Positions 16,642 through 45,920 of a stretch of DNA of 64,000 bases are shown here, one piece after another. A program made the translations under genes and the position numbers. Source of the DNA: an uncultured Clostridia bacterium. GTDB lineage: Bacteria > Bacillota > Clostridia > TANB77 > CAG-508. The notes under the pieces were generated by a model. The model did not search any database and was not told where the DNA came from. It was given only the letters and a program-made list of their open reading frames with translations. Every line of letters starts with the position of its first letter. Within the stretch, counting starts at the first letter, position 1. The DNA lies in contig CANRAY010000002.1 in assembly GCA_947628735.1 (NCBI GenBank), positions 35,482 to 99,481 on the forward strand, written 5' to 3'.

Positions 16642-17460
16642 TTAAGCTGTTTTTAGTTCAAGTCTTAATTTATCTGCAATCATTGCAATAAATTCACTGT
16701 TTGTAGGTTTGCCTTTACTTGCTGATACAGTATAACCAAAGATACTTTCTACCGTTTCTGTCTGTCCTCTTCCCCAAGCTACTTCAATAGCATGGCGAAT
16801 TGCTCTTTCTACTCTTGATGGTGTTGTTCCATATTTTTGTGCAATATCTGGATATAATTGTTTTGTTATTTGATTAATTACTTCTATATTATTTACTACC
16901 ATTATAATTGCTTCTCTTAAATATTGGTATCCTTTAATGTGTGCTGGTACTCCGACTTCATGGATGATATTTGTTACAAGTGCTTCTATGTTTTCTTCAT
17001 TTTTTTTACTTTCTGGGGATATATCTATGTATTGTGCTTTGATTTCTCTATTTATAAAACTGGTTTTGTATTGTGATGGTTGGAAATATCTTATTTCTTT
17101 CATTCTTCTAATTAATACACTAATATCAAATGGTTTTACAATGTAGTATTGAGCTCCTAGTGAAATGGCTTTTTGTGTAATTTTGTCTTGTCCTACTGCT
17201 GATATTATTATACACATTGGTTTCTTTTCTAGGTCTGATTCATTTAGTTTTTCTAGAACTCCTAATCCGTCTAAATGTGGCATAATAATGTCTAATAAAA
17301 CAACGTCTGGTTTTGTAGCAATAATTTGATCATAAGCTTCATTTCCATCTTTCGCAACAGAAACTACCTCCATTTCATCTTCTTTTTCTAAGTAATTCAT
17401 TAATGTTCCTGCAAATTCTGGATTATCGTCTGCTACTAAAACACGTATTTTCTCATTCAC
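16642..17460 (-). CDS. spo0A: Sporulation master regulator Spo0A
   Basis: CheY-like receiver ([10 protein letters not shown]...[14 protein letters not shown]) plus the Spo0A-specific C-terminal domain ([12 protein letters not shown]...[15 protein letters not shown]...[10 protein letters not shown]). GTG start with a GGGGGA SD. Confidence 0.95.
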
Positions 17461-40090: not shown

Positions 40091-40363
40091 ATGGTGATCA
40101 TGATGGATGAATTTGTTAATAAAGATGAAAAAACTTATATAGTAGAAGCTGATATGATAGAAGATAAAGATGAAAATGATTTAGATATTTCTAATGTCTC
40201 TGATGAAGAAGATAATTCTCCTGAAACACCTAAGCCAATTGAAGTTGTTAATGGCAATGGAAATGATTTAGATATTTCTGATGTTTCTGAATATTTAGAG
40301 GTTCAGAAACCAAAGGATGAAAATATAAAGGGCAATATTATTATTCCTGAAGAGAAAAAATAA
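40091..40363 (+). CDS. Small highly acidic protein with an internal repeat
   Basis: 90 aa, with NDLDISNVSDEE and NDLDISDVSEY repeated about 40 aa apart, and a terminator directly downstream. Confidence 0.4.
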   Translation: MVIMMDEFVNKDEKTYIVEADMIEDKDENDLDISNVSDEEDNSPETPKPIEVVNGNGNDLDISDVSEYLEVQKPKDENIKGNIIIPEEKK

Positions 40364-41607: not shown

Positions 41608-42132
41608 ATGATTAAAAAGGAAATATTATGTATAGAAAATTTTCATATTCCTAGATGGATTGAATTACCTAGTATAGAGCAATATTTGGATCAAGTTGTA
41701 AAGTTAATTAATTCTTGTTTAACCCCATATATTTTTTTTAATAATAATTATTCAAAAGAAGAAAACACTCTTCTTTCTAAAACAATGATAAATAATTATG
41801 TAAAAAATAATTTAATTGAAGCTCCTATAAAAAAGCAATATTCTAAAACACAAATAGCTAAACTATTCGTTATTTGTGTCTTAAAACAAGTATATAGTAT
41901 GCAAGATATAAAAAATTTAATTGAAATTGCTCTTAAAAATTCTACCATTGAAAACGCTTATGATAAATTTTGCAATTTATTTGAACAAGCTCTTCGTTGC
42001 ACTTACAATAAAAAAGACTTTATTGATAATAATTCAAGTAGCGATAATTTATATTTATTAAAATCAGTCTTACTATCTTGTAGTTATAAAATATACACTC
42101 AAAATACTATCTCAATACAAAATAGTAAATAA
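41608..42132 (+). CDS. DUF1836 domain protein
   Basis: LSKTMINNYVKNNLIEAPIKKQYSKTQIAKLFVICVLKQVYSMQDIKNLI matches the lT..MINNYvK..l...P.kKkY hallmark. Confidence 0.65.
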   Translation: MIKKEILCIENFHIPRWIELPSIEQYLDQVVKLINSCLTPYIFFNNNYSKEENTLLSKTMINNYVKNNLIEAPIKKQYSKTQIAKLFVICVLKQVYSMQDIKNLIEIALKNSTIENAYDKFCNLFEQALRCTYNKKDFIDNNSSSDNLYLLKSVLLSCSYKIYTQNTISIQNSK

Positions 42133-42172: not shown

Positions 42173-42201
42173 TTGAATCTACATAAAAATTGTACTATAA
42201 T
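42173..42201 (+). promoter_or_regulatory. Candidate sigma-A promoter of the two-gene cassette (TTGAAT-17-TATAAT)
   Basis: -35 TTGAAT at 42173-42178, a 17-nt spacer, and -10 TATAAT at 42196-42201. This predicts a 5' leader of about 125 nt. Confidence 0.45.
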
Positions 42202-42331
42202 ACCAATATCTTTTTGTTTTATTTTCATATAAATTTATATAGAAAGTAAGCAAAATGTAAACACATTTTATAAGGAGGTTGAGAAATATCAGGTATCTTT
42301 CGCAAGAAATAACATAGAAGGAGGTTTTCAA

Positions 42332-43495
42332 TTGTTACGACTACTTGCAGCAGATGTAGATATTTGTCGAATAAGTAAAGTGTTGGGAAGGCAACGGATA
42401 AAGTCATCCATCACAAACTCGACAATTATCATCGAGGCCGATGAGATTTCTGATGATGTAGTTGATATGCTTTTTGCAAATGCAACAATTATCAGTGCTC
42501 AAAACTATTGCTTGAATGAAGCAGAAACAGTTATTGACACAAAAATAGAATCTGAACAAGACCATGAACCCAGTATTGACTCATCTGTTAAACAATTCGA
42601 ATCTATCAAAACAAGTGAAATAGATACAAATGACAATACTTCCAGTGATGAAACAATAGATTCCGAATACTATGTGCAAGAACAGAAGGATATGTCTTTA
42701 GAATTGGGTATTGAAACTGAATCGGAAGATAAACCAACTCAAGCAAAAATTTCTGAATTAGAAATGGTTTACAGAGGTGAGGTTTACAAATGGAATAATG
42801 AGAGATATGCTGATGATAAAGAGGGACAGATCAAAGAATGTGTAATAATCATTCAAAATGATTACCAAAACTCTGCATCAGATGATACCATTGCTCTGTT
42901 TTGTACAACTCATTATGAGGAACGTGCTCCCATTCACTTTTTATTTCAATTCACCGAAAGAACTATGATTGACCACAGTGCTAAAAGGTTAGAACTGTTT
43001 GATCATTGCACTTTTTTTGTTGGTCATATTAAGGGCATTAGTCGAAAGCAGTTAGGCACGTATTTAGGAACTATGACTAATGAGTTCATGAATACATTGC
43101 AACCTACGATTGACTTTTGTCTTGGATTAAAAAGGTCTAGGACAGTTAATTGGATTCAATTACAGATTCTTTCAACAATAAATATGGAGGATTTGTTCAA
43201 AATTTCTGAGTCCAAAGTAAGTGACAATCAAAAGGTCGATGAATTTTTAGAACTTTTTGGCTTTGATATGTCAATCAATGGCATGCAATATGTCAAAGAT
43301 TCTATCTTGGTTGCTAAAAAATTGAGCGATTATAGATTGGAGTTTCTGGCAGAAATTGTTGCTGAAAAAAGGCAAGTCGATGCTAACGAAGTTTTAAGAT
43401 TAATAGTAGCGAGAATTAAAGAAAATTTTCATTTCAATAAGTCTCCTGCTATTTCGTTCATTAGGCTAATCGACAGGTTATTGAAGAAGAGGTGA
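42332..43495 (+). CDS. Uncharacterised multidomain protein A: small N-domain, acidic linker, MazF/PemK-like barrel, Spo0A_C-like helical DNA-binding domain
   Basis: TTG start with AAGGAGG 7 nt upstream.
- aa 61-140 are D/E/S/T-rich.
- aa 147-266 read YRGEVYKW...ECVIIIQNDYQNSASDDTIALFCTTH..., following the MazF hallmark RGD[IV]Y...RP.[LV][IV][IV].ND...T.I..P.T.
- aa 300-387 read FGFDMSINGMQYVKDSILV...VLRLIVARIKENF...SPAISFIRLIDRLL. This parallels the Spo0A C-domain present in this same window ([17 protein letters not shown]...[13 protein letters not shown]...[12 protein letters not shown]). Confidence 0.6.
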   Translation: MLRLLAADVDICRISKVLGRQRIKSSITNSTIIIEADEISDDVVDMLFANATIISAQNYCLNEAETVIDTKIESEQDHEPSIDSSVKQFESIKTSEIDTNDNTSSDETIDSEYYVQEQKDMSLELGIETESEDKPTQAKISELEMVYRGEVYKWNNERYADDKEGQIKECVIIIQNDYQNSASDDTIALFCTTHYEERAPIHFLFQFTERTMIDHSAKRLELFDHCTFFVGHIKGISRKQLGTYLGTMTNEFMNTLQPTIDFCLGLKRSRTVNWIQLQILSTINMEDLFKISESKVSDNQKVDEFLELFGFDMSINGMQYVKDSILVAKKLSDYRLEFLAEIVAEKRQVDANEVLRLIVARIKENFHFNKSPAISFIRLIDRLLKKR

Positions 43496-44775
43496 ATCGT
43501 GTGAATTTATCATTAACAGTAACCAAGAAGGCAAATACGAATATGTCTAGCTTGTTAAAGCAAATGTGTTCGTTAAAGTGTCGGATCAGTGTAGATTTGA
43601 TAAATGGTAGCATTTCCATTACCGATATGGATGACAATGATGTTGATAGCATTATTGATGCTGTCAACGAGGCTTTCGAGATTTCAAGTATTGACATTGT
43701 TCCGAGCGTTGTAGTCCCTGAACCTGAGAAGCCTGTTATTACGGAAGATTCCATTGAATTCGAGAAGGTGGAATTTAACGATACAGAAGTACAAGAACAG
43801 GTAAATAAACTTCTTAGAATTATCTACTGGGCTATGTATTCCAATAAGGCAAAATCTCGTGATATTTGTCAGTATTTAATGTCAACAGGTACGGAAATTG
43901 CGATGAAGTACAATCCAAAAGTTCCCACAAAATTCGCCATTGGAGATATTGTTGACTGCAACTATGGTTCTCATTTGAAAAATGAGATTTCTGGTGGCCA
44001 TGTTCACTCTATCATTTGCGATATTGATGAGAACGAAATGGTATACGCTGTTCCTATTACTAAGACACAAATCGAAAACGATGAAACAAGGTATTTGCAG
44101 TTTGCTGCAAATATTGATGTAGAGTACAATGATGCAAGATTTGCTGGTGGTACAGTTCTTCTCAATATGGGAAGATACATCCATCAACTGAGAGTCATCA
44201 AAGTTGTCGGTCATGCTTTACCTGAGTTCTTTCACAAGATCTTAATTGCATTACCAGCTACAGTTAGTTTTTCTTCTAAATATGACAACTACGAAGATCA
44301 ATTTGCTGAAAAGTTTGGTGATGTTAGTAATGATGACAGTATGTTGTCATTTGAGAGCTCTGAAGAACCTGAGGTTAAAAAAATTGAGGACGACTCTGTT
44401 GAAGAAATTTCTGGTAAGGTAATTTCTTCCGAAGATTATGTTGCTGACATTATTGCAGATGCTTTGAATTCTTTGGATAAGTCTAAGCCTGTAGAAGACC
44501 AAATTGATAATTTTCTTGATGCAATTGGTTTGTCTAAAAATGTACTTATTGTGAGAAATGCTTTCATTGCTGCTTGCTCTGTGGATAAAGTCACTTACAA
44601 TAATCTCGTCATCGAGTTGCAAAAAGAGATGCCTAAAGTTCGTGGTGAAATCATTAAGCTAACTTTAAAAAACGAATTTAAGAAATGGCTAAGTAATCAT
44701 CCTGATGTGATAGCGAATTATTCTAAAATCTCTATTATTGTTTTGCTCAAGCTCTTTGCGAAGAAGATGTCATAA
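43492..44775 (+). CDS. Uncharacterised multidomain protein B (paralogue of A): small N-domain, helical segment, MazF/PemK-like barrel, acidic linker, helical C-domain
   Basis: The GTG at 43492 overlaps the stop of A. An alternative GTG at 43501 has GAGG 8 nt upstream.
- aa 148-255 read AIGDIVDCNYGSHLKNEISGGHVHSIICDIDENEMVYAVPITKTQ...GRYIHQLRVIKVVGHAL, which is MazF/PemK-like.
- aa 262-318 are acidic.
- The C-terminal IDNFLDAIGLSKNVLIVRNAFIAA... parallels VDEFLELFGFDMS... of A.
- The N-domain ISVDLINGSISITDMDDNDVDSIIDAV parallels ITNSTIIIEADEISDDVVDMLFA of A. Confidence 0.6.
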   Translation: MNRVNLSLTVTKKANTNMSSLLKQMCSLKCRISVDLINGSISITDMDDNDVDSIIDAVNEAFEISSIDIVPSVVVPEPEKPVITEDSIEFEKVEFNDTEVQEQVNKLLRIIYWAMYSNKAKSRDICQYLMSTGTEIAMKYNPKVPTKFAIGDIVDCNYGSHLKNEISGGHVHSIICDIDENEMVYAVPITKTQIENDETRYLQFAANIDVEYNDARFAGGTVLLNMGRYIHQLRVIKVVGHALPEFFHKILIALPATVSFSSKYDNYEDQFAEKFGDVSNDDSMLSFESSEEPEVKKIEDDSVEEISGKVISSEDYVADIIADALNSLDKSKPVEDQIDNFLDAIGLSKNVLIVRNAFIAACSVDKVTYNNLVIELQKEMPKVRGEIIKLTLKNEFKKWLSNHPDVIANYSKISIIVLLKLFAKKMS

Positions 44776-44804: not shown

Positions 44805-44838
44805 CTGTGTGATAGGGTTCTATCACACAGTTTTTTTA
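44805..44838 (+). terminator. Rho-independent terminator of the two-gene cassette
   Basis: Perfect 11-bp stem ctgtgtgatag (44805-44815) / ctatcacacag (44820-44830), a 4-nt loop, then TTTTTTT. Confidence 0.8.
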
Positions 44839-44895
44839 TTATAGTAAAAAAGTAGGTTTCAAAAAACCTCCCTTTGAAGAGTTTTATTATATTTC

Positions 44896-45516: not shown

Positions 45517-45559
45517 CAAAAATAAAACAGTCTGAAATTGGTTAAATTTCAGACTGTTT
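45517..45559 (-). terminator. Rho-independent terminator immediately after tRNA-Leu
   Basis: Perfect 14-bp stem aaacagtctgaaat (45525-45538) / atttcagactgttt (45546-45559), with a T-rich run on the minus strand. Confidence 0.75.
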
Positions 45560-45648
45560 GGTGCAGATGGCCGGAATCGAACCGGCACGGGAGGATAAGT
45601 CCCGCAGGATTTTAAGTCCTGTGCGTCTGCCAGTTCCGCCACATCTGC
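45559..45648 (-). tRNA. tRNA-Leu (anticodon UAA), class II with a long variable arm and an encoded CCA
   Basis: The reverse complement GCAGATGTGGCGGAACTGGCAGACGCACAGGACTTAAAATCCTGCGGGACTTATCCTCCCGTGCCGGTTCGATTCCGGCCATCTGCACCA folds as a cloverleaf: 7-bp acceptor GCAGATG/CATCTGC, anticodon stem CAGGA/TCCTG with loop CTTAAAA, variable-arm stem GGGA/TCCC, and T-arm GCCGG-TTCGATT-CCGGC. Confidence 0.95.
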
Positions 45649-45724: not shown

Positions 45725-45862
45725 TTATTCTTCTATTTTTTCAAAAGAAGTTTTTGGAACACCACATAATGGGCATACCCAATCTTCTGGTAGATCTTCA
45801 AATTTTACTTCTTCTACCTCATCATCATATACATATCCACATGTTAAACATCTATATTTCAT
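45725..45862 (-). CDS. Rubredoxin (45 aa)
   Basis: [45 protein letters not shown] has two CxxCG knuckles and the DW.CP.CG pattern. AAGGAGAG SD lies 6 nt upstream. Too short for the ORF track. Confidence 0.85.
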
Positions 45863-45920
45863 TTTCATCTCTCCTTTCTTTAATGAATTATATTATATTA
45901 TTTTTTATTTAACAAGTATA

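Follow-up and report, generated by a model that had tools for sequence, protein, structure and literature searches.

The window analysed here is a 64,000-nucleotide (nt), low-GC stretch (about 26%) of contig CANRAY010000002.1 from an uncultured Clostridia bacterium (assembly GCA_947628735.1). Between positions 42332 and 44775 it carries two adjacent genes, A and B, whose products combine a predicted MazF-type fold with a helical C-terminal domain that is related to the effector domain of Spo0A (Spo0A_C), directly in A and by way of A in B. MazF toxins normally consist of one small domain and are held in check by a MazE antitoxin acting in trans, and Spo0A_C is the output domain of the sporulation master switch; the bona fide Spo0A of the host is encoded in the window at 16642-17460 on the minus strand. 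The two genes and the domains of their products, in amino acids (aa), are as follows.

Gene A, 42332-43495, plus strand: 387 aa; TTG start at 42332, TGA stop at 43493-43495.
Gene B, 43501-44775, plus strand: 424 aa from the GTG at 43501; 427 aa if from the GTG at 43492.
Protein A: N-domain, aa 1-60 (β-α-β-β-α-β); acidic disordered linker, 61-140; MazF-fold core, ~141-268; Spo0A_C-type helical domain, ~269-387.
Protein B (427-aa numbering): N-domain, aa 3-71; two-helix hairpin, 98-140; degenerate MazF-fold core, ~146-262; acidic disordered linker, ~263-310; helical C-domain, ~311-427.

A GGAGG sequence lies 7 nt 5' of the TTG start of gene A. For gene B two starts have to be considered, since the TGA of gene A overlaps the GTG at 43492 by 4 nt. 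Given that the homologs of B begin MNLTL..., which matches the second GTG, and that a Shine-Dalgarno (SD) sequence, AGAGGTG, stands before this GTG and overlaps the stop of gene A, gene B most likely starts at 43501, 5 nt past that stop; the public gene call, of 410 aa, begins at an even later ATG. A preliminary description of the locus had the stop of A overlapping or abutting the GTG of B, and although the overlap at 43492 exists and the two genes are tightly linked whichever start is used, the 5-nt gap is the likelier arrangement. Both open reading frames (ORFs) exist as first described and all of the peptide motifs quoted for them are found in the translations. It had also been said that no small antitoxin gene precedes either ORF, and this holds: the 200 nt upstream of A are a conserved non-coding leader, no adjacent small antitoxin ORF with an AbrB or ribbon-helix-helix (RHH) domain is present at the locus, and Pfam finds no antitoxin domain in A or B. 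With one promoter and one terminator, A and B form a tightly spaced, co-transcribed and translationally coupled pair that moves as a unit across loci.

Domain identities and paralogy of A and B

The AlphaFold2 model of protein A, made with a 32-sequence alignment, comprises an N-domain (residues 1-58, predicted local distance difference test (pLDDT) ~88) of ferredoxin-like topology, a beta-rich core (148-264) and a helical C-domain (274-384, pLDDT ~93). No relatives of the N-domain were found by sequence, either by Pfam searches of family members or among PDB sequences. Protein B has an extra two-helix hairpin at aa 98-140 and otherwise the same order of domains; the acidic linker separates the N-domain from the MazF core in A and follows the core in B. 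Both linkers are predicted to be disordered (pLDDT <50 at 61-138 of A and 275-308 of B), with Asp or Glu at 23 of 80 residues in A and at 16 of 50 in B and an isoelectric point of about 4.05, which bears out the long, acidic and probably disordered linkers noticed from the outset. DETIDSEYY in A and NDDSMLSF in B are conserved motifs of acidic and aromatic residues. The accompanying proposal that the MazF-like barrel is joined to the C-domain through such a linker is correct for B but not for A, where the linker precedes the core.

In both proteins the core is predicted to be an SH3-like barrel of the MazF/CcdB type. The Pfam family PF02452 aligns nearly full length in A (22.0 bits) and B (18.1 bits) of the window, both just under the gathering score of 23.1, and finds a match in 31 of 32 members of the A family (best E 3e-26) and in 18 of 29 of the B family (best E 1.9e-6). 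A profile of the A family matches the sequences of the solved S. aureus and B. subtilis MazF proteins in the PDB at E 1e-14, and in Foldseek comparison with the PDB the top structures for the A model are all MazF (target template modelling (TM) score 0.6-0.74). The B-family profile had no MazF match among PDB sequences, and structure comparison was needed; this put MazF on top (1ne8, E 1.4e-5; TM 0.76-0.80; root-mean-square deviation (rmsd) ~2.3 Å). PHROG 1936, a 'MazF-like growth inhibitor', matches both A and B. The MazF/PemK-like segment first read in each protein is thus supported by the PF02452 profiles, by the profile comparison with PDB sequences and by Foldseek. In BFVD, three phage 'PemK-like' proteins of 220-235 aa (Q332J9, A0A8S5QRG6 and A0A8S5SHR3) match the A model across 195-245 columns, a longer stretch than a bare MazF domain would cover, and may share an extension with A.

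On sequence profiles, the C-domain of A is genuinely homologous to the effector domain of Spo0A. Compared by hhalign with a local alignment of 23 Spo0A_C copies, it matches at 97.7% (E 1.5e-12) over 84 columns, the helix-turn-helix (HTH) included. Among the 128 ORFs of the window, the hidden Markov model (HMM) of this C-domain finds Spo0A (E 1.2e-5) and the local Spo0A_C HMM finds A (E 1.8e-7), reciprocally and exclusively, and the register in which A had been lined up with the Spo0A of the window recurs in the profile alignment. An exhaustive search of 1.84 billion representative proteins with the C-domain profile gave 106 matches, mostly the A family itself; ten matches from the weak tail, several of them multi-stretch, were tested, of which eight are bona fide PF08769 proteins (Pfam E 1e-25 to 1e-121) and two are ankyrin and leucine-rich repeat noise. 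By structure, Foldseek against BFVD matched A to a phage 'Stage 0 sporulation protein A' (A0A8S5TVN9; TM 0.66, rmsd 2.5 Å, 100 columns) and to A0A8S5N4T4 at TM 0.48. The Pfam model PF08769 itself gives no score for the window's protein and weak matches in just 5 of 32 A-family members, and against PDB sequences the C-domain profile returned a single chance match to centrin.

The C-domain of B matches Spo0A_C directly over 19 columns alone, those of the first helix, and a fold match to Spo0A_C is absent from every Foldseek list; to the C-domain of A it matches at 90.1% (E 1.6e-6) over 88 columns. On these profiles B is tied to Spo0A_C only via A, so that the initial assignment of Spo0A-C-like domains to both proteins stands for A, through hhalign, the reciprocal HMMs and the fold, but not directly for B. 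Neither protein has a Response_reg (receiver) domain by Pfam. The recognition helix of A reads NEVLRLIVARI, and given that the polar and basic residues of the Spo0A helix are for the most part replaced, specificity for the 0A box is unlikely. Other unusual Spo0A effector architectures were seen in proteins with two to four tandem copies of Spo0A_C (P0261, P0263, P0269, P0270, P0273, P0276, P0280 and P0281), with four copies in P0261 and P0280, and in P0281 a sub-threshold receiver match (25.9 bits, cut-off 30.2) is accompanied by a C-terminal AbrB/MazE-type domain.

No similarity between A and B is detected by BLASTP. When deep profiles of the two families are compared, however, the MazF cores match at 93.9% (E 1.6e-7), the C-domains as given above and the N-domains weakly, at 17% (E 1.5e-3), and all six mismatched-domain controls remain at or below 1.1%. 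Given the matching cores and C-domains and the clean controls, A and B are, at profile level, distant paralogs that were anciently duplicated in tandem, and the tandem paralogy proposed at first holds in this sense even though BLASTP does not see it. This blindness of BLASTP and the Pfam scores slightly below the gathering score could suggest a mis-assembled or mis-called mazEF-like locus, or a chance resemblance of motifs in low-GC sequence. Such an artefact is excluded for three reasons: first, clustering at 90% identity gives at least 154 clusters for A and at least 65 for B, full length and from independent assemblies, almost all of them metagenomic. Second, the AlphaFold2 domains are confident and find both structural and profile matches. 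Third, the cassette is conserved in 26 loci.

Catalytic positions and natural variants

In the MazF of B. subtilis, substrate RNA is bound by Arg25 and Thr48, and toxicity depends on both (PMC8634880). In A of the window the Arg25 position is occupied by Glu169 (nt 42836-42838) and the Thr48 position by Thr192; in B the corresponding residues are His170 and Thr190, and QND has become CDI. As aligned, the window pair is doubly non-canonical at the MazF catalytic site and, given the replacement of the catalytic Arg in both proteins, the earlier label of a toxin-type endoribonuclease is doubtful for these copies. Across the A family the Arg25 position is Arg in 101 of 177 members and Glu in 66 of 177, the Arg members belonging to clades other than that of the window, and RGEVY, QND and Thr48 are always retained. 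In most lineages A carries the complete MazF signature (RGEVY, Arg25, QND, Thr48 and EQIRTVDK), and judging by these residues A of most other lineages looks like a competent MazF. In the B family, 52 of 59 members carry His at the Arg25 position; the family lacks Arg5, has C[DN]I instead of QND and is degenerate in all lineages.

Several loci carry shortened versions of one partner. The MazF core is missing, in frame, from B in L007 and L015 and from A in L019, B has lost its C-domain in frame in L017, and in L014 a catalytically intact A is followed by a B cut to its last ~30 residues. Conservation is highest in the C-domain, with a mean column identity of 63% as against 36% for the whole protein.

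These observations raise the possibility that A and B are purely a pair of transcription factors without toxin activity in any lineage, in which the MazF fold was exapted as a constitutive dimerisation module, or as a ligand- or RNA-sensing one, in place of the Spo0A receiver. The N-domain would then be a small-molecule sensor of the ACT/HMA type, and the host targets would possibly be sporulation or dormancy genes. The missing catalytic Arg in the window's clade, the degeneracy of B throughout, the deletion of the core from either partner with N- and C-domains retained, the conservation of the C-domain and the presence of Spo0A in the host are all consistent with this, as is the proposed action on sporulation of receiver-less Spo0A_C proteins carried by gut phages and mobile elements (bioRxiv 2023.01.19.524802; 10.1101/214213). 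Nevertheless, this scenario, although it deserves consideration, is unlikely: the full MazF signature in A of most lineages, with E down to 3e-26, would be difficult to account for if A neither bound nor cleaved RNA, and the cassette-like mobility and foreign codon usage described below would be unusual for a host regulator. Furthermore, the candidate DNA motif of the promoter is not enriched elsewhere in the window, and the recognition helix of A departs from that of Spo0A at most of its polar and basic positions.

Promoter, leader and genomic setting of the cassette

The non-coding features that frame the two genes are listed below.

Sigma-A-type promoter, 42173-42201, plus strand: TTGAAT at 42173-42178, a 17-nt spacer and TATAAT at 42196-42201, from a promoter scan.
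TCTACATAA, 42178-42186, plus strand: in the promoter spacer, one mismatch from the family-wide TTTACATAA.
Conserved leader of ~130 nt, 42202-42331, plus strand: between the promoter and the start of gene A, from the locus alignment.
Leader 5' hairpin, 42212-42255, plus strand: an inverted repeat.
Invariant ATGTAAA, 42255-42261, plus strand: the reverse complement of TTTACAT.
SD-like AAGGAGG box without a start codon, 42272-42278, plus strand: STAB-SD-like.
True SD AAGGAGG, 42318-42324, plus strand: before the TTG of gene A.
Intrinsic terminator, 44805-44840 (also given as 44805-44830), plus strand: strong, with an 11-bp stem of 5 GC pairs, then a T run, closing the two-gene unit.

The ~200 nt 5' of gene A were compared in the window and in loci L001-L025 and L044-L050. 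The promoter is alignable across seven loci of the window's clade, and the locus alignment shows promoter and leader kept along with the genes between unrelated flanking sequences. A common layout of core promoter, hairpin, SD-like box, ~45-nt spacer and true SD is found in three clades that share only ~30% protein identity. The base of the hairpin, ATTTTG/CAAAAT, is conserved and its upper stem is clade-specific with compensated sequence (per-locus fold z -2 to -5); the consensus RNA fold of the window's clade alone is weak (-0.74 kcal/mol) and the hairpin is convincing only on cross-clade comparison. The leader has no counterpart in Rfam. Its orphan SD-like box may be likened to the STAB-SD elements that stabilise mRNA in Gram-positive bacteria (PMC4113751). 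A leader peptide at this box was considered and rejected, there being no conserved start codon or frame across loci.

Within the 200 nt 5' of A, the 9-mer TTTACATAA occurs in 20 of 26 loci as against an expectation of 0.007 per 200 nt, about 650-fold over background. It always overlaps the core promoter, at positions that are clade-specific, and a second, inverted copy is present in several loci; TTTACATAA is a candidate operator to which binding is predicted. In the leaders of five loci of the clade in which A retains the catalytic Arg (L001, L008, L010, L012 and L021), the pentamer UACAU, the cleavage motif of B. subtilis and S. aureus MazF, stands where the mRNA is predicted to begin (TATAAT-A-TTTACATAA), and a further copy lies between the SD and the start codon of A (CTACATAGTG). 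These sites hint that the cassette's own mRNA may be cleaved where A has kept this residue.

The family is rare, and an alignment-based genome scan located full-length relatives only in metagenome-assembled genomes of uncultured gut Clostridia; a scan with single proteins found no relatives, and NCBIfam has no model for the family. A match in a Faecalimonas phage proved to be a plain MazF of 121 aa with an unrelated downstream ORF. Wherever A is full length, B adjoins it on the 3' side, L014 being the one exception; the pair persists in 25 of 26 loci, and the two coding regions lie a few nt apart or overlap in all three clades. The neighbouring genes, by comparison, differ in every lineage: rpoB/rpoC, mur/ftsW, ABC transporters, or LytTR and ParE/Phd genes, with HU/spoVB in the window. 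Directly 5' of the cassette lies a fragmented tyrosine integrase in L048 (7001-7679, minus strand) and a large serine recombinase in L049 (6151-7803, plus strand).

The pair also differs from its surroundings in composition. GC content at third codon positions (GC3) is 0.300 in A and 0.333 in B as against 0.123 ± 0.022 for the other 47 genes of the window, so that the two rank 48th and 49th of 49 and lie 8-9.5 standard deviations above the rest, and in each of the 20 other loci tested the GC3 of the pair is above that of its flanking genes. The raised GC3 is not explained by avoidance of UACAU in the mRNA of the cassette, which is not significant (z -0.8 to -1.6). The simplest reading of this bias would be continual horizontal movement.

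Abortive infection was among the functions first proposed for the pair. In such a scenario A and B would be an anti-phage fused toxin-antitoxin (TA) in the manner of CapRel, with the N- or C-domain sensing a phage cue and thereby lifting the auto-inhibition that the acidic linker exerts on the MazF RNase. A two-gene unit of foreign composition that moves between chromosomal sites would be in keeping with this, as would the TA genes, integrase or recombinase nearby in L002, L046, L048 and L049 and the intact catalytic residues of the MazF fold in most lineages. However, this is very unlikely: PADLOC-DB 2.0 contains no family that matches A, B or the distant members P0105 and P0177 at E <= 0.01, the neighbourhoods are mostly ordinary chromosome rather than defence islands, the window copy lacks the catalytic Arg in both proteins and nothing points to a sensor.

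Other genes around the pair in the window are recorded here as separate observations. The gene directly 5' of the cassette (41608-42132, plus strand) encodes a DUF1836 protein (PF08876, E 1e-26) and accompanies the pair in no other locus. Further upstream, a very acidic 90-aa ORF without a Pfam family (40091-40363, plus strand) contains an internal 34-nt direct repeat (40170-40203 and 40257-40290, 91% identical), which repeats the peptide NDLDIS.VS. A tRNA-Leu(taa) gene (45559-45648, minus strand) lies ~800 nt 3' of B, beside a 47-aa rubredoxin-type ORF with the pattern CxxC...CPxCG (45725-45868, minus strand). An island at this tRNA-Leu was considered and rejected, as there is no att-like direct repeat.

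Interpretation and comparison with known systems

It is suggested, as a plausible proposal that falls just short of an even call, that A and B constitute a horizontally mobile, autoregulated and self-contained two-gene cassette with a TA-like or regulatory function. MazF is an obligate dimer, and in Spo0A it is the phosphorylated receiver domain that does the dimerising. In the cassette, the MazF-fold cores would pair between A and B, or as homodimers, and so bring two Spo0A_C-type domains together, and the A/B complex would repress the operon by binding TTTACATAA, which overlaps the cassette's own promoter, in the manner of type II TA modules. A proteins of the Arg clade, which are those of most lineages, would probably be RNases held in check by the paralog B, by the acidic linkers lying in the RNA groove, or by both. 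With Glu in A and His in B, the window copy would most likely be a nucleic-acid-binding regulator or a detoxified module and not an active toxin.

Several observations weigh against this proposal. AlphaFold2 leaves the relative placement of the domains unset in both A and B (predicted TM score 0.36-0.40). Given that the loci are homologous, the counts of TTTACATAA across them are not independent; the motif in the window's own promoter carries one mismatch, and a search for a wider regulon in the window gave 4 matches to TTTACATAA where 4.0 were expected, which is no enrichment. In light of the intact A beside a remnant of B in L014, B may not be an essential antitoxin, and in-frame loss of the MazF core is seen both for B (L007 and L015) and for A (L019). 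As for mobility, no relatives were found on plasmids, phages hold plain MazF genes only and no counterpart of the full architecture, and no att-like repeats or island borders were found.

A more specific version of the cassette proposal may also be considered, in which a mobile MazF-derived module of a new class makes a hetero-complex of an RNase-fold protein and its pseudo-enzyme paralog, the paralog replacing the antitoxin, while receiver-less Spo0A-type domains both repress the module's own expression and read or override the Spo0A decision of the host on sporulation or dormancy. This is regarded as quite unlikely; if true, a selfish toxin module would be tied directly to the sporulation switch in gut Clostridia. 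More broadly, given the lack of a separate antitoxin, the pseudo-toxin paralog and the loss of the catalytic Arg in some lineages, the cassette could show the domestication of a toxin fold into regulators.

Each of the domain families is already known, and what is new is the combination of a ferredoxin-like N-domain, a MazF fold and a Spo0A_C-type domain, duplicated in tandem on an autonomous cassette. The preliminary description did not recognize the pair as a described family, and this is upheld, as no family name exists for it and a literature search turned up neither a published MazF-Spo0A_C fusion nor a partner gene of the pseudo-MazF kind. The closest relatives of the core are the MazF/PemK (EndoA/YdcE) toxins of MazEF, which have the fold and a recognizable sequence signature in common with A and B, and the arrangement of two closely linked genes under their own promoter is likewise that of MazEF; the acidic disordered segment in each protein recalls the tail of MazE, although this is a resemblance only. 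In contrast to the single-domain toxin of ~110 aa, A and B are three-domain proteins of about 390-430 aa, and in place of an antitoxin of the AbrB or RHH type the partner is a degenerate MazF paralog, with the DNA-binding domain fused to the toxin fold itself. With Spo0A_C (PF08769), homology of the A C-domain extends over nearly the entire domain, the HTH included, and the fold is common to phage Spo0A_C proteins. The copies on phages and mobile elements lack the receiver domain just as A does, but in A the domain is fused downstream of a MazF fold and is neither free-standing nor placed after a receiver.

Gut phages and mobile elements are known to carry receiver-less Spo0A_C proteins (bioRxiv 2023.01.19.524802; 10.1101/214213) and, given the enrichment of these proteins there, the cassette may be another route by which mobile DNA affects dormancy in gut spore-formers. 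In Myxococcus, MazF-mx is controlled by the transcription factor MrpC instead of by MazE (PMC2701414). That system, like A/B, joins a toxin fold and a transcription factor, but its partners are encoded by separate, unlinked genes. Among fused single-chain TA systems, the CapRel-type toxSAS and EzeT combine a toxin fold with a regulatory or neutralising module, in toxin classes that differ from MazF. To our knowledge, none of CapRel, EzeT and MazF-mx/MrpC contains a MazF-Spo0A_C fusion or a paralogous pseudo-toxin partner, and the cassette described here would extend the few known fused or unconventional TA designs to MazF.

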